Source: a bacterium
GTDB taxonomy: Bacteria > Hinthialibacterota > Hinthialibacteria > Hinthialibacterales > Hinthialibacteraceae
Length of the DNA stretch: 64,000 nucleotides
Direction: 5' to 3'
Assembly: GCA_963662285.2 (NCBI GenBank)
Contig: CAXXMV010000006.1
Location: 1,408,001-1,472,000, forward strand
A program made the position numbers and the translations under genes. Under the pieces are notes generated by a model. That model made no database searches. It saw nothing but the letters and a program-made list of their open reading frames with translations, and was not told where the DNA came from. Positions 39,889-48,879 of the stretch are shown here, piece by piece (the first letter of the stretch is position 1; each line of letters begins with the position of its first letter).

Positions 39889-40824
39889 CTATTTCACTGC
39901 CTTAAAGAATTCTGCGGCTGATCCGGCGATTCCTTCGGCGTCCAGTTTGTATTCTTTGTACATATCTTCGGGGCTGCCGGATTGACCGAATTGATCCAGA
40001 ACTCCCCAGCGTTTAACTGGTACGGGGAATTTCTCTGACGTCACTTCGCAAACCGCTGAACCCAGGCCGCCAATGATGCTGTGATCTTCGACGGTGAACA
40101 GGCATCCTGTTTCCTTGGCGCATTTTACGATCAATTCTTCATCAATGGGCTTGATGGAATGGATGTTGACGATGCGAGCATCAATCTTCTTGGCGGCCAG
40201 CAGCTCTTTGGCTTTGAGCGCATGTTGTACGGTTCCACCGGAAGCGATGATGGTCATATCAGCGCCGGGCGCCAGTTCAGCGCCTTTACCTAATTGGAAT
40301 TTATAACCCTCGCCATTGACGTCGGGTAGTTTCTGACGGGTTAGACGCAGGTAAACCGGGCCGTCGTGTTGCGCGGCGAAGGCTACGGCTTGTTTGGTTT
40401 CCACTTCGTCAGCTGGTTGAATGACGACCATACCGGGGATAGAGCGCATCAGGCCGATGTCTTCCAGACCCATTTGGCTGTGGCCGTCTTCTCCGATGCC
40501 GATTCCGGCGTGGGTGCCGACGATTTTGACATTGGCTTTGGCGTATCCAACCGAGATGCGGATAGTATCGAAGCGTCCCGTGATGAAGCAGGCGAAACTG
40601 CATACAAAGGGGACTTTGCCCGATAGAGCCATTCCGGCGCCGGCGCCGATCATGTTGGCTTCAGCGATTCCAAACTCAAAAAAGCGCTCGGGGTATTTAT
40701 CGGCGAAGAGGCAGGTCATGGTGGATTTGCTTAAATCAGCATCCAGAACCACAACATTAGGATTGCTCCGCCCGATATCCACCAAGGCTTCTCCAAAGGC
40801 GAGACGAGTTGCTTTTGTAGACAT
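39889..40824 (-). CDS. Transketolase, C-terminal (pyrimidine-binding) subunit
   Basis: ATRLAFG, DADL..ST, GIAEANM, GEDGHSQ, YLRL.R, EDHS..GGLGSAV. Confidence 0.92.
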   Translation of the reverse strand: MSTKATRLAFGEALVDIGRSNPNVVVLDADLSKSTMTCLFADKYPERFFEFGIAEANMIGAGAGMALSGKVPFVCSFACFITGRFDTIRISVGYAKANVKIVGTHAGIGIGEDGHSQMGLEDIGLMRSIPGMVVIQPADEVETKQAVAFAAQHDGPVYLRLTRQKLPDVNGEGYKFQLGKGAELAPGADMTIIASGGTVQHALKAKELLAAKKIDARIVNIHSIKPIDEELIVKCAKETGCLFTVEDHSIIGGLGSAVCEVTSEKFPVPVKRWGVLDQFGQSGSPEDMYKEYKLDAEGIAGSAAEFFKAVK

Positions 40825-40922
40825 ATTATCCTTCCATATCTATAGGAAAATTCTATTAATTTCAGTGTTACCCCGGTATGTCTGGTTACTCTGGTAGAAC
40901 CGGGTTTGATCCAGATCAGGAA

Positions 40923-41756
40923 TTATACTTGAGCCAGTTCCTTGAGCGCCTGCTCGGTCTCTTCAGGATTGGGAGTCTTGCCATGCCAGCCGACCTGGTT
41001 TTCCATGAACGAAACGCCTTTGCCTTTGACGGTTTTAGCCCATATAAGAGTGGGGCGGTCTTTGGTGGCCTGGGCTTCGTCGAGCGCTTTGATAACCTGT
41101 TCCATGTCATGGCCGTTGATGGCGATGACGTGCCAGTTGAATGAGCGCCATTTGGCGTCGATGGGCGTTAATGACATTACGTCTTCGACATAACCGTCGA
41201 TCTGGGCGTTGTTGTTATCCAGGATAAGCGTCAGGTTGTTGAGTTTGAATTTGCTGGCGGCCATAACCGCTTCCCAGATTTGGCCTTCCTGTGATTCGCC
41301 GTCGCCGATCATGCAATATACGCGCCAGGCTTTTTTGTCCATTTTGGCGGTCATAGCCATGCCCAGAGCGATGGAGAGTCCTTGTCCCAATGATCCGGTC
41401 GAGGCTTCCATAGCGTTGCAGCGAACGCGGTCGGGGTGTCCCTGGAGGAATGATCCGAATTTGCGCAGATTGATGAGTTCTTTTTCATCAAAATAACCCG
41501 CCTGAGCCAGGGCGGAGTACCATGCCGGGACGCAGTGTCCCTTGGACATGATGAAACGGTCGCGTTCTTCCCATTGGGGATTGGCCGGATCGTGTTTCAT
41601 TACTCCGAATAGAAGCGCCGCCGTGATATCCGCGGCGGATAATGAACCACCCGGATGTCCCGAACCGGCTTCAGCCAGCATCCTGATGCTATTCATGCGA
41701 ATATTTCGCGCGTGTGATTTGAGCGTACTTATGTCTCTAGTGAGTTCAAAAGCCAT
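40923..41756 (-). CDS. Transketolase, N-terminal (TPP-binding) subunit
   Basis: SGHPGGSLS, DRFIMSKGH, LQGHP, TGSLGQGLS, GDGE...N TPP motif, KGKGVSFMEN...WHG. Confidence 0.93.
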   Translation of the reverse strand: MAFELTRDISTLKSHARNIRMNSIRMLAEAGSGHPGGSLSAADITAALLFGVMKHDPANPQWEERDRFIMSKGHCVPAWYSALAQAGYFDEKELINLRKFGSFLQGHPDRVRCNAMEASTGSLGQGLSIALGMAMTAKMDKKAWRVYCMIGDGESQEGQIWEAVMAASKFKLNNLTLILDNNNAQIDGYVEDVMSLTPIDAKWRSFNWHVIAINGHDMEQVIKALDEAQATKDRPTLIWAKTVKGKGVSFMENQVGWHGKTPNPEETEQALKELAQV

Positions 41757-42784: not shown

Positions 42785-42979
42785 GTAAGGGATGGACTTA
42801 ATGCTTTCGCTTGTGATTTTGAGTACTACTCAAGGGCTGAAAATATTCTGCCCTTGGCGTACGCGCCTATTCATGTAGTAGATTGATATAATGCATATTA
42901 TTGAAGGTTCATCTCAAAAGTGATTTGCAAATTATATATTTGCCCGTAAAATATATAATAGTTGTTCATTCCCGCAGAA

Positions 42980-43222
42980 ATGGATAAGACGCTGATGAAT
43001 GCCCTGGACATTATTACAGCGATAGAAAAACTGCCGCAAGATGAAAAACAGTTAGTCATTGATTTTGCGGTTTCTATCAGAGAAGCAATGTATCTAGCTG
43101 CTGACTATTCCCCGGAAGATGAGGAGATGATCGTTGAAGAAGCCAAACTCTGTAAACAAAGGGTAGATGTAAAAGAACATTCTTCGGCGGATGACTTGCG
43201 TAATTCTCTTGGTTTAACCTAA
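42980..43222 (+). CDS. Putative type II antitoxin
   Basis: Small acidic ORF 10 bp upstream of a RelE-type toxin; IEKLPQDEKQLVIDF N-terminus; HSSADDLRNSL C-terminus. The start codon is uncertain (42962, 42980 or 42995). Confidence 0.65.
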   Translation: MDKTLMNALDIITAIEKLPQDEKQLVIDFAVSIREAMYLAADYSPEDEEMIVEEAKLCKQRVDVKEHSSADDLRNSLGLT

Positions 43223-43232
43223 GAGCAATTTA

Positions 43233-43493
43233 ATGAGGTTTGTTCACCGCAAAAAATTCACCAAAGGTCTTGAAAAACTCACCCCAAACCAAAAGAAGAG
43301 CGTTGGGGAAGTTATTAAATTATTCGAAGATGATCCTTTCCATCCTAAACTCAATAATCATGCCCTTCATGGTAAACTAAAAGATTTGCGATCTATTTCT
43401 GTCGGAGGAGATTTACGTATCACTTTTTTTGAAGAAGATAATTATGAGGTGGTCTACCTTGTATGTATTGGAACCCATAACCAAGTGTATTGA
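43233..43493 (+). CDS. Type II TA toxin, RelE/StbE/YafQ family mRNA interferase
   Basis: F.K..KL...F..DPFHPKLNNHALHGKL...RSISVGGDLRI.F...IGTHNQVY. Confidence 0.9.
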   Translation: MRFVHRKKFTKGLEKLTPNQKKSVGEVIKLFEDDPFHPKLNNHALHGKLKDLRSISVGGDLRITFFEEDNYEVVYLVCIGTHNQVY

Positions 43494-43528: not shown

Positions 43529-44182
43529 TCAGGCTGGTTTCATTTTTAGGATTTTTTTGACAAGAAGGTCAACGTTCGTATATGGATGCCATGTTCTACT
43601 TGATGGATTTGCAGCAGAGTTATGATGAAAATCGTTAATTCTTTCTGCACCTTTAAATGCTTTTTCAAGGTTGGGGTATAACGAATTAATAATTGATTGA
43701 TTCTTTTTGTAATCTGGGATATATACTTGTAAATCATGTCTGACTTCATCGTTATCCTTAAATTGTTTTGTTGTATAAGCGAAATGAAGAAGAAACCAGA
43801 ATTCAAAACTGGGAGTTGAAAAAGCGATATTAAAGGTAGGCTTTTTCCCTTTTATATTGTTATTTATACTATTTGCTTTATCGATGGCTTTATCGAAAGT
43901 TTCATGTGTATCGCGATCAAAAACACACCAAATGTGATCAAACAGTGCTTTATTTTTATTGAGCATTTTTTCTGCATGTTCCACAACCTTTATTGGTGCA
44001 GAGTCACATTCTTTACCATGGATTTCTATCTGGAGTTGATGGATTTTCCTCTTTTTTCTTAGATCTTTAAAATATTGTGTTTCGGTCGTCTCTCTTTCGC
44101 ATACAATCAATATTTTATTACCTGAGAATTTAGGAGCATTTTGAGTGAATTTATTTTTTGCGCGATTTTGATGTCTACTCAT
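43529..44182 (-). CDS. RloB family protein (TOPRIM-like; AbiLii-like)
   Basis: ILIVCE(R)..TE..YF, WCVFDRD, S.PSFEFWFLLHF, YKK and PYT.V..LV motifs. The start overlaps the ATPase stop (TAATG). Confidence 0.88.
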   Translation of the reverse strand: MSRHQNRAKNKFTQNAPKFSGNKILIVCERETTETQYFKDLRKKRKIHQLQIEIHGKECDSAPIKVVEHAEKMLNKNKALFDHIWCVFDRDTHETFDKAIDKANSINNNIKGKKPTFNIAFSTPSFEFWFLLHFAYTTKQFKDNDEVRHDLQVYIPDYKKNQSIINSLYPNLEKAFKGAERINDFHHNSAANPSSRTWHPYTNVDLLVKKILKMKPA

Positions 44183-45462
44183 TAGAAATCAAGCCCCCCC
44201 AGGAATGGAATAGCGCCATAGCGTCCCGCCAAGTATCCTTTTTGCAGGGCTTCTTCTTTCCGGGGCTTAAAATCGGTCAGGGGATATAAAATAGTCGCGG
44301 CTTCTTTATTCTTCTCGGTAAACCAGACTTGGTCGCGTCGCAATATATCCGTATTCAACTGGGTTGTATCATGGGTTGTGAAAATTAGTTGAGCGCCATT
44401 TTTATTCAACTCCTCGCTGTGCACCATCTCAATCAATTTTCTGAAAAGCATAGGATGTAAATTTGAACCGATTTCATCCAGGAAAATAGTTTTTCCTAGA
44501 TTTAGTGAATCTACCAAAGGGCCGAGTAATGAGAACAAAACTCTTGTTCCTGCCGATTCTTTATTTGGAGTTAAATAGACATTTTTGCCTGTATCATTTT
44601 TCTTGTGAAGGAATTTCCATGCTATTAATTCTTCTTTTAATTTCTTAATAAACATATCCATTATTGAATTAGGTTTACTTGTTGGTGATTCTAAATTACG
44701 AAATTCATTCCTTTTCGTTTTTATATCCATAACGCCTAAATCCGCTTGTTTTAATATATTTCTAATGATAATAGACTGTTCATTTTTATCATCAATAATT
44801 GAAGCGGTAATTTCTGAATTGGATAATGATTCAAAATAATCTAAAAATCGAAAGCAGTTTTTGAACCATTCGTAAACATTACCTAATTGCCTATGGTTAA
44901 ATTGAGCGGCAGTCGATAGAAAGAGAGTTTTAAATTTTGTTTTCTCTTTCAGGCTTTCTTTCTCGCCCTTGAGGAATGTACTGAAATTCCATTCATACTC
45001 TTTTTTTTCATCATTAAAAAAACGGTAAAACCATTGCTGGGCTTTCCCATTAGGGTAGGCAATAAGCCATTCCTTATAAACTTTCTTTTTTTTTATCGCA
45101 AATCCATATTGATAACGGATTCCCTCATGAATAAAGATGATTTCGAATTCACTTAGTTCCTTTTCGCTTTTTGAATCAAATCCAAAAGGAGCAATATCAA
45201 TTTCATCAAGAAAATTTCTTCGGATTGATTCGTCAACAATTAAATTTCTCATGAATTTTCCGGCTTTGTATAAATTGCTTTTGCCTGATGCGTTAGCGCC
45301 GTAGATGGCTGCGCTTTTTAGTAGTTTTACGTTAGATAATCCTGGCGCTTGGGGATCGATCAGGTGGTTGGGGTGTTCGTTGTCTTTATTGTTGGCCACC
45401 ATGCTCAGGGTTTGTTTATCTTTAATGGAACGGTAATTTTTTACTGAAAATTCAATCAACAT
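44182..45462 (-). CDS. AAA_21/ABC-type ATPase (RloA/AbiLi-like)
   Basis: MLIEFSVKNYRSIKD start; Walker A GANASGKS; signature ESAGT; Walker B IFLDE..S.LHP; QLIFTTHD; RRDQVWFTEK; YLAGRYGAIP. Confidence 0.9.
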   Translation of the reverse strand: MLIEFSVKNYRSIKDKQTLSMVANNKDNEHPNHLIDPQAPGLSNVKLLKSAAIYGANASGKSNLYKAGKFMRNLIVDESIRRNFLDEIDIAPFGFDSKSEKELSEFEIIFIHEGIRYQYGFAIKKKKVYKEWLIAYPNGKAQQWFYRFFNDEKKEYEWNFSTFLKGEKESLKEKTKFKTLFLSTAAQFNHRQLGNVYEWFKNCFRFLDYFESLSNSEITASIIDDKNEQSIIIRNILKQADLGVMDIKTKRNEFRNLESPTSKPNSIMDMFIKKLKEELIAWKFLHKKNDTGKNVYLTPNKESAGTRVLFSLLGPLVDSLNLGKTIFLDEIGSNLHPMLFRKLIEMVHSEELNKNGAQLIFTTHDTTQLNTDILRRDQVWFTEKNKEAATILYPLTDFKPRKEEALQKGYLAGRYGAIPFLGGLDF

Positions 45463-45792
45463 TGTACTTGCCTATCAATTTAATCGCGATTTCCGCATAA
45501 AAACTGCGGATGTATGGTTATAATTTACATATATATCGGATTATGTGCAAGTTTACTTGATCTTTTTTTAGATATTTATCTAAAATACTCTAATCATTTC
45601 TGAGAATATTCAGAATCATAAGTGATAGCATCAAGGGCTGACTGCATTGCGGTCTTGCCCTTGGTGCCAGGCAATATCCTCTTTTACTGTTTTTTCTATC
45701 CAAGTAGATTATTTCGACTCATCATATTTCTAATAATAAATACCATGTTGATGATTATTGAGGTTGCTGTCGGAATTTTTTGAAACAATTTG

Positions 45793-45836
45793 TTGACATT
45801 TATTGTAACAAAGATTATGATTATTAATCTTTGTTA
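45793..45836 (+). promoter_or_regulatory. Sigma70-type promoter of the pAgo-SIR2 operon with an overlapping palindromic operator
   Basis: TTGACA (45793-45798), 17-nt spacer, TATGAT (45816-45821). Perfect inverted repeat TAACAAAGATTA-N7-TAATCTTTGTTA (45806-45836). Confidence 0.65.
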
Positions 45837-45912: not shown

Positions 45913-47814
45913 ATGAATGATCATAAAAAAATAGCTTTGAATTTCTTACCCATAGAACCACAGAATTTTGAATTCACAGTTTATCGCAAGTTAATGATAA
46001 ATAATGAACAGAGACCTTGTGAAGATGTTTTTAAATCTTCATTACCAAATGAAAAGAAAAATGAACCTTGGCCCAAATATTGGGTGTCCTTTACACAAAA
46101 AGAAGATTATGAAGAATTTTTAGTTAATACTAAAACAAACAATTATTTGACTAGAGAGTATCTTTTTCAACAATTAGTAATGAATATCAAGGAGCATATT
46201 CCTGAACGACTCGAAAGAAATGAAGAAAAATTCTATAAACGTAGAATATTTTTTAAACTTGAAGAATTTGATATTGGCAAACAAGTAATATGGCTAGATC
46301 CATTTTATTTAAAAAAAACATCCACTTTTGGATTCTTAATTGATTTTTGTTTTATCTCTAATGATGATTCATCACATTCAAAAGAACGTCAAAAACTATC
46401 TCTTAATTTAGATAGTTCCTATCGCTCAAACAAAAATTTCCACCAAGAAAAACTTTATAAAATAAAAAATTTCATTGACATATTTCTTGAAAAATTAAAT
46501 CCAATTTCTGATAATACTGACTTGAACTTAAGGATATCTAACAAATTTTCATGCATTAATTCAAGTACATTAAGTAATAAAATCTACAGTTTTGATAATA
46601 TGAAAACTAATAATTCTCAATTTCAGGGAATCAAAGAATACGGACCCTATCAAAAAAGTAATATTAATATTCACTATCATTTTATATTTAAGGAAGAAAA
46701 TATCGATTTAGGCCGGGATCTATTAAGGGCTTTAAATGGAGAAACATTTAAACAAACTTTTCCAGGAATGGAAAAAATGTTTCATATAAAATTAGGAAAG
46801 GATAATGTTTCAAAAATAATAATTAATTCATATAATAAAAGTGAAATTGATAAAGCAATCGAATCAATCAACAAATCAGGCTATGAAAATAACATTGCTA
46901 CTTTCATTTTCCCAGAAAAAGATTCAGATTTTTACTATAACCTAAAGAATGTTTTTCTTAATTCTGGTGTTTTAACCCAAGGCGTTCATATTGAAACCTT
47001 AAAAAATACGTCTGGTTTAAAGTGGTCGATTTCAAGTATTGCTCTTCAGTTGTTTTCAAAATCTGGTGGGGTGCCTTGGAGGCTTAAACCTAGTAATGAA
47101 AATTGTTTAATCATTGGAATTGGCAAAGCGCACCATCTGAAAAAAGATAATGGTCGAACTTTAGTTGAAAAATATTTTGCATATTCTGTTCTGACAGATT
47201 CAAGTGGAAAATATGTTTCTATGGATGTACTTTCTAGTGAAAAGGATGAAAATAATTATCTAAATAGTCTTCAAGCAAATCTGAAAAAAATTGTAGAAGA
47301 TTATAAAGATAAATATCAAAAAATCACTCTACATATACCTTTTAAAATACAACTACGAGAACTTGACGCAATAAAGAAAACGATTATAAACATAGATTCA
47401 GAGAAAGAATTTGTTGTAATCAAAATTGATGATCAGAGTAAATATTTTGGATATAATATAGATGTTAATTCATTTGTGCCTTATGAAAGTACTTTGTTAG
47501 AACTTTCACAAAATGAATATTTATTATGGACTGAAGGTTTAAATTACCATAATAAAAAAGTGATTAAACGATATTCAAATCCACTCCATATAGAATTTTA
47601 TTATTCAAATAAAAATTTATTAAGTCAGAGTGAAAAGAATTTATATTTACAGGATATAATGAATTTGTCAGGTGCAAGCTGGCGGGGATTCAATGCAAAG
47701 AAACTACCGATATCAATGTTTTATCCCAAGATAATATCACGATTCATAAAAGAGTTTTCAACTCGTAATCTAACAGAGATTAATTTTCAAGATTTACCAC
47801 CTTGGTTTTTATAA
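45913..47814 (+). CDS. ago: Prokaryotic Argonaute, catalytically inactive, compact long-B-like (633 aa)
   Basis: L2 motif QGIKEYGPY; MID 5'-phosphate pocket Y-K-Q-K (FYYNLK...TQGV...QLFSKSGGVPWRL); PIWI strands IIGIGKA, TLHIPFK, LQDIMNLSGASWRGF...LPISMFYP; C-terminal WFL. Confidence 0.9.
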   Translation: MNDHKKIALNFLPIEPQNFEFTVYRKLMINNEQRPCEDVFKSSLPNEKKNEPWPKYWVSFTQKEDYEEFLVNTKTNNYLTREYLFQQLVMNIKEHIPERLERNEEKFYKRRIFFKLEEFDIGKQVIWLDPFYLKKTSTFGFLIDFCFISNDDSSHSKERQKLSLNLDSSYRSNKNFHQEKLYKIKNFIDIFLEKLNPISDNTDLNLRISNKFSCINSSTLSNKIYSFDNMKTNNSQFQGIKEYGPYQKSNINIHYHFIFKEENIDLGRDLLRALNGETFKQTFPGMEKMFHIKLGKDNVSKIIINSYNKSEIDKAIESINKSGYENNIATFIFPEKDSDFYYNLKNVFLNSGVLTQGVHIETLKNTSGLKWSISSIALQLFSKSGGVPWRLKPSNENCLIIGIGKAHHLKKDNGRTLVEKYFAYSVLTDSSGKYVSMDVLSSEKDENNYLNSLQANLKKIVEDYKDKYQKITLHIPFKIQLRELDAIKKTIINIDSEKEFVVIKIDDQSKYFGYNIDVNSFVPYESTLLELSQNEYLLWTEGLNYHNKKVIKRYSNPLHIEFYYSNKNLLSQSEKNLYLQDIMNLSGASWRGFNAKKLPISMFYPKIISRFIKEFSTRNLTEINFQDLPPWFL

Positions 47815-47826
47815 AAGAAGATTAGC

Positions 47827-48879
47827 ATGAATTTTAAGGAAAACGAGATAATTTTTTTATTAGGTGCTGGGGCTAGTAAAGATGCAGATATCCCAATGTC
47901 TAATGAAATGATTGAAAAAGTTGAAAATTTAATTTTATCTGATAAATTTTGGAAAGAGTTTAGGGATTTTTATTATTTGATAAAGAGTGCAATTTTTTAT
48001 GCAGATGGTGTTCAGGGTAAGTTTAATAAAAAAGTTAACTTTAATATAGAGAGATTGTTTAATGTCTTAATTGAACTAGAAAAAAAAGAAGAACATCCAC
48101 TATATCCATTTATTGGCCAATGGAATATTAAATTTTCTGAAATTGTAGGTAATGATTATGAGTTAATTAAAAAATTTCAAGATTTAATCTTAAGTGAATT
48201 AAAAAATTGGATTACGCTAAAAATTAATAGTAACGCAGATTACTATAAAAAACTCAAAGATTTTAAAATAGAGATCAATCATTCTCTCAGGTTATTTACT
48301 CTTAACTATGATTTATGTGTAGAAAAGTCATTGTTATCAGAAGATTTTATTGTGGAACGAGGCTTCAATGAAAATCGCATTTGGGATTACAAAAAGATAA
48401 TTGACTTTCCTGCTGACAATACTCCAGATATTTTTCTATATAAGTTACACGGCTCTATTGATTGGGAAAGAGATAAGAATACTGGAGAAGTCAAATATAC
48501 TGATTGTAATGCACAAAATCCAGATTTGATTTTTGGAAGCGCCTATAAACTACAATATGTAGATCCATATTTATTTCAATTTTCTGAATTTAGGCACTAC
48601 ACTCTTAAAGCAAAACTCATAATTGTTGTTGGTTATGGCTTAGGAGATGAACATATAAATGGAATCATAAAGCAAGCGTTGGAGCAGGATGATTCAAAAA
48701 AATTGCTATATGTATCTCCTTCTGCAAATAAAGAAGAAATACAAAAATATCTTGGATTGAACAATGATGATCAATTGGAAACGATAAAATCAAGTGCCTC
48801 GAATTACTTTCAGAAAGAATTAGAATTGAATAAATTGAAAAACTTCTTTCCAGATGATTCAGATGATTTATGGATGTGA
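47827..48879 (+). CDS. SIR2-family (SIR2_2) putative NADase effector, stand-alone
   Basis: FLLGAGASKDADIP, FTLNYD, LYKLHGSIDW and VVGYGLGDEHIN. It starts 12 bp after the Ago stop and has no room for an APAZ domain. Confidence 0.9.
   Translation: MNFKENEIIFLLGAGASKDADIPMSNEMIEKVENLILSDKFWKEFRDFYYLIKSAIFYADGVQGKFNKKVNFNIERLFNVLIELEKKEEHPLYPFIGQWNIKFSEIVGNDYELIKKFQDLILSELKNWITLKINSNADYYKKLKDFKIEINHSLRLFTLNYDLCVEKSLLSEDFIVERGFNENRIWDYKKIIDFPADNTPDIFLYKLHGSIDWERDKNTGEVKYTDCNAQNPDLIFGSAYKLQYVDPYLFQFSEFRHYTLKAKLIIVVGYGLGDEHINGIIKQALEQDDSKKLLYVSPSANKEEIQKYLGLNNDDQLETIKSSASNYFQKELELNKLKNFFPDDSDDLWM

Follow-up and report, generated by a model that had tools for sequence, protein, structure and literature searches.

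The Argonaute-Sir2 locus

A 64,000-nt stretch of a Hinthialibacteraceae genome (GCA_963662285.2, contig CAXXMV010000006.1, positions 1,408,001-1,472,000 of the forward strand), referred to below as the window, carries a gene for an Argonaute (Ago) protein followed directly by a gene for a stand-alone Sir2 protein. Prokaryotic Argonautes (pAgos) of the long-B type have been found with such a partner: a long-B pAgo encoded upstream of a SIR2_2 gene was named BPAS (Song 2023, PMC10620215), and Sir2-like, ThsA-like proteins were given as one of the two major gene types immediately downstream of long-B pAgos (Manakova 2024, PMC10954474). An original prediction for this locus had placed the two open reading frames (ORFs) and a 12-bp gap between them exactly where they are found here. 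In window coordinates, the pair and its immediate upstream region contain the following features.

45793 to 45821, forward strand: promoter-like site (TTGACA, 17 nt, TATGAT), about 90 bp 5' of the Ago start codon, with 11 of 12 matches; the best site in the scanned region and a candidate only.
45913 to 47814, forward strand: long-B-type Argonaute, 633 amino acids (aa), ATG start, a single chain of N-L1-L2-MID-PIWI, predicted to be PAZ-less and catalytically dead (ORF, PADLOC, Pfam, AlphaFold2, structure matches, profile against the PDB).
47815 to 47826, forward strand: spacer of 12 bp from the Ago stop codon to the SIR2 start codon (ORF coordinates).
47827 to 48879, forward strand: stand-alone SIR2_2 protein of the bAgaS type, 350 aa, ATG start, with a Rossmann core and a helical insertion at about residues 25-150 (ORF, PADLOC, Pfam, AlphaFold2).

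A PAZ-less Argonaute with a predicted dead PIWI domain

The Pfam Piwi family matched the Ago over residues 331-610 (E = 8.9e-14), and an AlphaFold2 model built with a 55-sequence alignment of the family reached a mean pLDDT of 91.0 and a pTM of 0.89. The domains of the Ago are given below; their borders are approximate because they were taken from model secondary structure and aligned ranges rather than from residue-level superposition.

45913 to 46362, forward strand: N domain and linker L1, residues 1 to about 150, borders approximate (model strands 5-72, helix 77-95 and strands 100-149; RsAgo alignment from model residue 4).
46360 to 46440, forward strand: linker at the PAZ position, 27 residues (150-176) with a single short helix (157-162) (model secondary structure, family alignment).
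46438 to 46617, forward strand: linker L2, residues about 176-235, with helix 176-195 and strands 205-219 (model; profile position 180 aligns to EcAgo 254, inside the EcAgo L2 at 218-308).
46618 to 47097, forward strand: MID domain, residues about 236-395, with the 5'-phosphate pocket Y341/K345/Q356/K383 (family alignment; AfAgo MID-PIWI alignment from residue 214/235 on).
47098 to 47811, forward strand: PIWI domain, residues about 396-633, predicted to lack the DEDX tetrad, with G404, P476 and P605/K606 (family alignment; catalytic positions mapped by motif context).

The structural comparisons bear on whether a PAZ domain is present. The top Foldseek match of the model was the long-B RsAgo (6d9k_F, E = 6.3e-31, TMq 0.72). 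With VIA-align, the model superposed on AfAgo (1ytu_A) with a Z score of 37.3 and a root-mean-square deviation (rmsd) of 2.5 for 381 aligned residues, covering model residues 215-633. The matches to AfAgo structures, which hold MID-PIWI only, spanned Z scores of 36.5-37.3 and began at model residue 214/215. RsAgo (5awh_A) aligned along the whole chain (Z 30.5, rmsd 3.7, 579 aligned, model 4-633 against chain 19-776), and about 180 of its residues had no aligned counterpart in the model. Since the MID-PIWI half starts at about residue 215, some 214 residues are left for N, L1 and L2. For EcAgo, the published borders are N 1-92, L1 92-155 and L2 218-308, which amount to 245 residues, with 63 more for PAZ at 155-218 (PMC13535254).

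The region between L1 and L2 is correspondingly short in the model, where the N/L1 strands run to residue 149 and the L2 helix spans residues 176-195, with the linker in between. The segment at the PAZ position measures 26-31 residues in 55 of 55 family members. In addition, positions 180-617 of the family profile align to EcAgo 254-707, so that EcAgo has about 75 extra residues upstream. The AfAgo and RsAgo alignments, the short linker in every family member and the EcAgo profile alignment together lead us to conclude that, as judged from sequence and model, PAZ is absent throughout the Ago family. The Ago had earlier been suspected of lacking PAZ, with an AlphaFold model proposed as the check, and the model bears this out. 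A typical long-B protein with a reduced PAZ* domain, as in RsAgo and EcAgo, would have at least about 60 residues between L1 and L2 and is ruled out by the 27 residues present there.

The MID residues Y341, K345, Q356 and K383 are each kept in 55/55 members, in agreement with the intact Y-K-Q-K pocket noted earlier. At column 404, 52 sequences have G, two have A and one has S; at column 476, 42 have P, 12 have T and one has S; column 605 holds A, C, P, S or T. In none of the 55 is an acidic residue or a histidine present at columns 404, 476 and 605. We take these columns to be sites of the DEDX tetrad from motif context and from the ends of model strands 398-405 and 470-476, not from a residue-by-residue alignment to an active Ago. 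Under this mapping, the motifs GIG (402-404), HIPF (474-477) and YPK (604-606) put G404, P476 and P605/K606 where catalytic residues would be expected, and the proposed loss of the PIWI tetrad stands. The Ago is thus predicted to be unable to cut. The motif GIKEYGPY, which had been assigned to L2, is indeed present at residues 239-246, but its place is the border of L2 and MID (helix 236-243) rather than L2 proper, and in the AfAgo MID-PIWI protein it is matched by the N-terminal part.

The Sir2 protein

The protein encoded downstream matched Pfam SIR2_2 over residues 156-308 (E = 1.4e-12). Its motifs are GAGAS at 13-17, NYD at 160-162 and HGS at 208-210, as had been recognized for an intact SIR2 gene 12 bp downstream, and N160, D162 and H208 are invariant in 53/53 sequences of the Sir2 alignment. 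In the AlphaFold2 model (pLDDT 87.9, pTM 0.88) the protein forms one SIR2 fold, and a helical insertion separates the glycine motif from the NYD strand. The best fold match was the SIR2 of SIR2-HerA (8wld_J, E = 6.8e-14, TMq 0.67), with 334 columns aligned against a chain of 337 residues, and the SPARSA and DSR2 Sir2 domains came next at about 1e-6. A profile search of the PDB gave a similar order, with the SIR2-HerA Sir2 at E = 2.1e-24 and the SPARSA Sir2 at 4.5e-3, the latter over the N-terminal glycine motif only. There was no close sequence relative in the PDB, the best match being E = 1.2e-12 with the single sequence and 2.1e-24 with the profile. The protein had been described as carrying no APAZ domain, and its length of 350 aa, its one SIR2 fold and its alignment across the SIR2-HerA SIR2 agree. 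Sequence and model agree on a stand-alone SIR2_2 protein of one domain whose predicted NAD site is intact.

The position of the catalytic asparagine was compared within the family and with GbbAgaS, the tested BPAS Sir2. It falls at 158-160 in four family members (the window and loci L023, L042 and L077) and, with numbering from the first start codon, at 167 in L014 and L066, each of which has later in-frame starts. N160 was equated with N155 of GbbAgaS by motif and position, not by alignment to GbbAgaS. A position of 158-160 or 167 against 155 seems compatible with shared family membership and is no proof of it.

These data also bear on the chemistry of the Sir2. The two genes could form a defence pair in which the Sir2 is not a bulk NAD+ hydrolase and instead ADP-ribosylates or deacylates a target or answers a nucleotide signal. 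The SIR2-fold proteins of defence systems are chemically diverse, the nearest solved relatives of this Sir2 are the Sir2 subunits of SIR2-HerA rather than the SPARSA Sir2, and its NADase activity is a prediction from homology. Nevertheless, the BPAS Sir2 depleted NAD+ in vivo while its Asn mutant did not, as reported by Song 2023 (PMC10620215), and the same Asn, Asp and His are invariant in our Sir2 alignment. The protein also has no extra ligand-sensing domain, its 350 aa being taken up by a single SIR2 fold and the helical insertion. We therefore regard a function other than NAD+ hydrolysis as very unlikely and retain the Sir2 as a putative NADase.

Family size and long-B affinity

Both proteins matched PADLOC models over essentially their full length. 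The pAgo_II model PDLC02381 matched the Ago with E = 6.9e-207 and 687 bits over profile positions 2-617 of 617, and the Aga_SIR2 'Class II' model PDLC02408 matched the Sir2 with E = 4.5e-119 over positions 1-340 of 343. A word-indexed search of 5.8 billion proteins, in which 8000 candidates were scored, returned 262 Ago matches at E <= 1e-10. Among the 120 matches listed, 118 are 601-668 aa long and the other two 438 and 564 aa; most of the 120 span 99-100% of the query, and the closest is 59% identical. When 1.84 billion cluster representatives were searched exhaustively with the family profile, 1719 matched at E <= 1e-3, 1005 at E <= 1e-10 and 410 at E <= 1e-30, and the best 44 are all 620-652 aa. 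A length of 633 aa is therefore the norm of this family.

When the family profile was compared with PDB sequences, the truncated long-B AfAgo ranked first (E = 2.5e-33), followed by the long-B EcAgo of BPAN (1.7e-29) and the long-B RsAgo (3e-19). Animal PIWI proteins (about 5e-12) and short pAgos (4.2e-8 and 3.2e-7, the latter the SPARSA Ago) were weaker, and no prokaryotic long-A protein was matched at E <= 1e-3. Because AfAgo, EcAgo and RsAgo rank far above the short pAgos, the profile supports a long-B affinity of the Ago; this clade call rests on profile scores and on the published placement of the family member EbAgo, not on an outgroup-rooted tree.

The size of the N-terminal lobe had suggested another arrangement, namely a SPARSA-like short-pAgo system whose APAZ domain has become joined to MID-PIWI, leaving the Sir2 free. 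The lobe of about 214-235 aa is indeed APAZ-sized, APAZ has been described as structurally equivalent to N-L1-L2 (PMC10954474), and short-pAgo structures fit the MID-PIWI half well (SPARTA Ago 8k34_B, Z 33.7, model 216-633). However, the Ago profile scores long-B proteins at 2.5e-33 to 3e-19 against 3.2e-7 for the SPARSA Ago and 4.2e-8 for another short pAgo, and the Sir2 profile likewise falls on the SIR2-HerA side rather than the SPARSA side, as described above. The class I (short) models of PADLOC reach at most 60 bits on the Ago against the 687 bits of pAgo_II, and on the Sir2 they reach E = 1.3e-5 over residues 4-31 only. Moreover, EbAgo was treated as long-B by Manakova 2024 (PMC10954474). 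With the profiles of both proteins, PADLOC and the published class of EbAgo all contrary to it, the APAZ fusion was rejected as extremely improbable. From these comparisons, the architecture is better read as that of a long-B pAgo that has probably lost PAZ.

The notion of an intermediate architecture, between short and typical long pAgos, does not survive, as the length of 620-650 aa and the linker of about 27 residues are family-wide (the linker in 55/55). Nor is an uncharacterised subclade, as had been considered, supported: PADLOC holds full-length models for both proteins, the pairing with a Sir2 gene is kept in 80 of 80 loci, EbAgo is published, and Ryazansky 2018 had already listed 31 long pAgos without PAZ as well as a SIR2 orthogroup, og_44, in pAgo operons (PMC6299218).

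Two kinds of unusual relatives were seen in the profile search. Four matches of 402-426 aa (P0229, P0240, P0241 and P0255) align only to profile positions 215/239-637 and may be split MID-PIWI forms like AfAgo, or else mere fragments of genes on short metagenome contigs. The first relative of clearly greater length, P0277 (750 aa, E = 1.1e-94), aligns with residues 249-750 on profile positions 157-637 and carries about 90 additional residues at its N terminus. Among long-B relatives, it may be the closest one to retain PAZ* or an N-terminal extension.

Conservation and spread of the gene pair

We scanned one genome per species and found 206 genomes that encode a relative of the Ago; 80 loci were kept, and the other 126 genomes were left out of the pairing counts. 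A tblastn search with the window's Sir2 found a homologue directly downstream of the Ago on the same strand in all 80 kept loci, with 37-60% identity to the query. The distance from the Ago to the tblastn match is 5-31 nt in 79 of the 80 and 183 nt in L052, where the two genes are adjacent at the ORF level too; L047 is interrupted by a contig end. Measured as ORFs, the Agos run from 620 to 713 aa with a median of 637.5 aa, and the Sir2 proteins have a median length of 362.5 aa. Conservation of the pair had been put forward as a check on the system, and with the pairing kept at all 80 loci, the Ago and Sir2 genes are inherited as a unit.

The kept loci carry more than 20 phylum labels. On a FastTree tree of the family there are 34 changes of phylum label against a minimum possible of 20, and such scattered labels fit frequent horizontal transfer. 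This tree has SH-like support values and a midpoint root without an outgroup and is silent on placement among the pAgo clades. The group containing the window's Ago has a support of 99 and 12 rows, of which eight are Bacteroidota, one Chlorobiota and one Peregrinibacteria, and its nearest relative is 51% identical. In a plasmid collection, relatives were found on four records, one from Leptolyngbya and three from Hymenobacter; with only four such records, carriage on plasmids is occasional.

A probable BPAS-type defence operon

The gene pair very probably represents a BPAS-type defence operon in which a long-B pAgo and a Sir2 effector would act by target-triggered NAD+ depletion. An abortive-infection system of the long-B/Sir2 type had been predicted at the outset, and this reading fits every test run here on the encoded proteins: the clade, the apparently dead PIWI, the MID pocket, the downstream SIR2_2 gene, the NAD-site residues and the missing APAZ. 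The experimental precedent is GbBPAS, in which the Sir2 (GbAgaS) alone is toxic, GbAgo suppresses the toxicity and the two proteins co-purify (PMC10620215). According to the same report, cell killing and NAD+ depletion by the GbBPAS pair require the presence of a plasmid with the CloDF13 origin, and GbbAgaS N155A abolished both toxicity and NAD+ loss.

We propose the following mechanism, whose steps are drawn from GbBPAS and from work on long-B and short pAgos. By homology to GbBPAS, the Ago would hold the Sir2 in an inactive complex and would load short 5'-phosphorylated RNA guides derived from invader transcripts. Pairing of a guide with complementary invader DNA would change the conformation of the Ago, upon which the Sir2 would be released or activated. 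The Sir2 would then hydrolyse cellular NAD+, and the infected cell would stop growing or die before the plasmid or phage could spread.

Several observations weigh against this proposal. Neither protein passed an NCBIfam model (26.3 bits against a cut-off of 700; 46.1 against 500). What links the pair to GbBPAS is that both have a SIR2_2 effector and the same operon order and that the catalytic Asn is similarly placed; the tested system is not tied by sequence to the 620-650-aa family. The type of guide (RNA or DNA), the type of target and the 5'-nucleotide preference are all inferred. As to expression, promoter-like sites in the 45.3-49.2 kb region were not above chance, with 27 sites against 22.0 +/- 5.5 in shuffled sequences. 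Finally, prediction of the Ago-Sir2 complex lends the proposal weak support, with a median ipSAE of 0.47 (runs at 0.70, 0.47 and 0.39) and 0.00 for the best of three controls. At least 80% of the contacts agreed between runs and the partner pLDDT was at least 80. The mark used for such predictions is reached by 58 of 80 solved complexes and by 2 of 110 mismatched pairs; at ipSAE <= 0.60, it is reached by only 7 of those 80 complexes and by both passing mismatches.

Genomic context

The module stands apart from its surroundings in base composition. The G+C content is 27.1% for the Ago gene and 28.1% for the SIR2 gene against 43.8% for the whole window, and the 46-48 kb bin, at 26.9%, is the lowest of 32 two-kb bins. 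The Ago is present once in this 7.29-Mb genome of eight contigs. No match to it was found in 30 relatives searched, of which 18 are of the same family and 17 have a completeness of 90% or more and a contamination of 5% or less, the rest being less complete. The genes upstream of the Ago are listed below.

42962 to 43222, forward strand: candidate antitoxin, 86 aa, no family match, 10 bp 5' of the YafQ-type toxin ORF (assigned by position).
43233 to 43493, forward strand: toxin of the YafQ/RelE family, 86 aa (Pfam YafQ_toxin E = 3.6e-8; NCBIfam RelE_StbE 32.5 bits against a cut-off of 27.9).
43529 to 44182, reverse strand: AbiLii, RloB-like protein, 217 aa (Pfam E = 1.6e-40, PADLOC AbiLii E = 4.8e-24).
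44182 to 45462, reverse strand: AbiLi, AAA_21 ATPase, 426 aa (Pfam E = 7.8e-37, PADLOC AbiLi E = 5.8e-97).

The AbiLi/AbiLii pair adjoins the Ago gene upstream and is transcribed divergently from it, and its two ORFs share one base. The genes at 42962-43493 are likely a type II toxin-antitoxin pair. The region around the Ago and Sir2 genes is thus a small defence island. Because the module shares a stretch of unusually low G+C content with AbiL and the YafQ-type pair, horizontal acquisition from a low-G+C donor is likely. The G+C content drops stepwise, from about 38-40% at 42-44 kb to 33% at 44-46 kb and 27% at 46-48 kb, with immediate flanks at 50-53%, which suggests that the toxin-antitoxin, AbiL and Ago-Sir2 modules arrived separately.

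The borders of the island gave no further signal. There was no tRNA gene in the 36-56 kb region and no integrase signature, and no convincing direct repeats flanked the island in 41.5-49.5 kb, where the only candidates were short AT-rich two-copy families that look like chance. With no tRNA gene or convincing repeats, we claim no integration site. Terminators in 45.3-49.2 kb were not above chance (1 against 1.2 in shuffles), and an Rfam scan of 45.4-49.1 kb produced a single sub-threshold chance match of 18.9 bits against a gathering score of 40. By eye, a G+C-rich inverted repeat (7-bp stem CAAGGGC/GCCCTTG, 18-nt loop) is visible at 45634-45665 in the otherwise AT-rich 450-bp spacer between AbiLi and the Ago gene. 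It drew neither an Rfam match nor a terminator call and may be a module junction or an operator. Left of the island, at 39889-41756 on the reverse strand, two adjacent ORFs of 277 and 311 aa, in DNA of 50-53% G+C, look by eye like a transketolase split into an N-terminal and a C-terminal half.

Given the likely foreign origin, the module could also be a mere passenger, brought in with an island and now silent or decaying, that lies idle in this host. Its atypical G+C content (27% against 43.8% for the window), the lack of matches in the 30 relatives searched and the lack of a promoter signal above chance would be expected of such a passenger. On the other hand, both ORFs are full length and open, the residues invariant in the Ago and Sir2 families were read at the window's own positions, the lengths of 633 and 350 aa fit the family medians, and the gene spacing is the family norm. 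An idle passenger is highly improbable on this evidence, and we favor a BPAS-type operon that is still intact.

Comparison with known systems

The Ago-Sir2 pair is very probably a BPAS in its EbAgo-type, PAZ-less form. The family is already described, and a claim of novelty is not supported. The locus adds a copy, with no more than 59% identity to any protein found, to a widespread, named and partly tested two-gene defence module. Its recognition allows the defence island of this genome to be annotated correctly. It adds a further case of the module in a compositionally foreign stretch, in a lineage whose searched relatives are without it. It also establishes the PAZ-less form of about 635 aa as the norm among the related loci examined rather than an oddity. 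The question that it raises for the whole family is how a PAZ-less long-B Argonaute holds and releases a free Sir2.

The closest published counterpart is EbAgo of Epilithonimonas bovis (WP_076783222.1), one of the single-chain long-B examples in Figure 6C of Manakova 2024, which also describes the loss of PAZ* among such pAgos (PMC10954474). An exact look-up identified EbAgo as the Ago of our locus L042 (E. bovis DSM 19482), where the neighbouring WP_076783223.1 is annotated as a 'SIR2 family protein'. Like the window's Ago, EbAgo is a single chain (636 aa), and a Sir2 gene follows it after 12-16 nt. The two Agos are 38% identical, with window residues 7-633 aligned to EbAgo 4-636 and no sizeable gap before window residue 318, and the tblastn match for the EbAgo Sir2 is 37.5% identical to the window's Sir2. 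From this end-to-end alignment and the Sir2 neighbour, it follows that the architecture in the window is the one already published. EbAgo differs in that it lies on a separate branch of the family tree and has been described only computationally.

GbBPAS resembles the window pair in having a dead pAgo upstream of a free SIR2_2 gene in a two-gene operon, with the catalytic Asn at N155 there and N160 here. The expected outcome is the same, NAD+ depletion and cell death on sensing an invader. GbAgo was likened to the window's Ago by its published description rather than by sequence.

Among solved structures, fAfAgo of Archaeoglobus fulgidus (AfAgo with AfAgo-N, PDB 8ok9) is likewise a PAZ-less, catalytically dead long-B protein, and AfAgo is the best MID-PIWI match of the window's Ago both by sequence (E = 2.5e-20 alone, 2.5e-33 with the profile) and by structure. 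Unlike the window's Ago, fAfAgo consists of two polypeptides instead of one chain, and the downstream gene product Af1317 is not a Sir2; it has been described as homologous to a membrane effector that has a conserved helical domain. EcAgo of EcBPAN (PDB 23wq; PMC13535254) and RsAgo (PDB 5awh) are also long-B proteins with a dead PIWI and an effector gene downstream, and RsAgo shares its whole-chain fold with the window's Ago. These two differ in keeping a reduced PAZ (residues 155-218 in EcAgo), in their length of 731-778 aa and in their effector, a PD-(D/E)XK nuclease, which was reported not to co-purify with EcAgo.

SPARSA is similar in that an Argonaute controls a Sir2 NADase, with NAD+ depletion and abortive infection as the outcome. 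It differs in that APAZ, the equivalent of N-L1-L2, is fused to the Sir2 and not to the Ago, which belongs to the short clade. In the window, the N-L1-L2 lobe is part of the Ago chain and the Sir2 has a single domain, and the SPARSA arrangement of a MID-PIWI-only Ago with APAZ on the Sir2 is not found.

The structural basis of BPAS activation appears to be unsolved, because the PDB holds no close relative of the Sir2 and we found no BPAS work beyond Song 2023; literature searches on BPAS and its protein names otherwise returned passing mentions. A 2025 preprint speculates that a PIWI beta-relay may modulate effector binding in long-B systems (10.1101/2025.04.08.647717). We tentatively raise the possibility, which we hold to be less probable than its negation, that the EbAgo-type BPAS family uses a third, structurally unsolved coupling of Sir2 to Argonaute. 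The free Sir2 would be held constitutively on the PAZ-less Ago and switched on by the guide-target duplex, perhaps via the PIWI beta-relay strands. If it were true that the loss of PAZ creates a docking surface, the family would show the evolution of effector coupling between long-B and short pAgos. Such a coupling would differ from that of SPARSA by having no APAZ tether and from that of BPAN by forming a stable complex.

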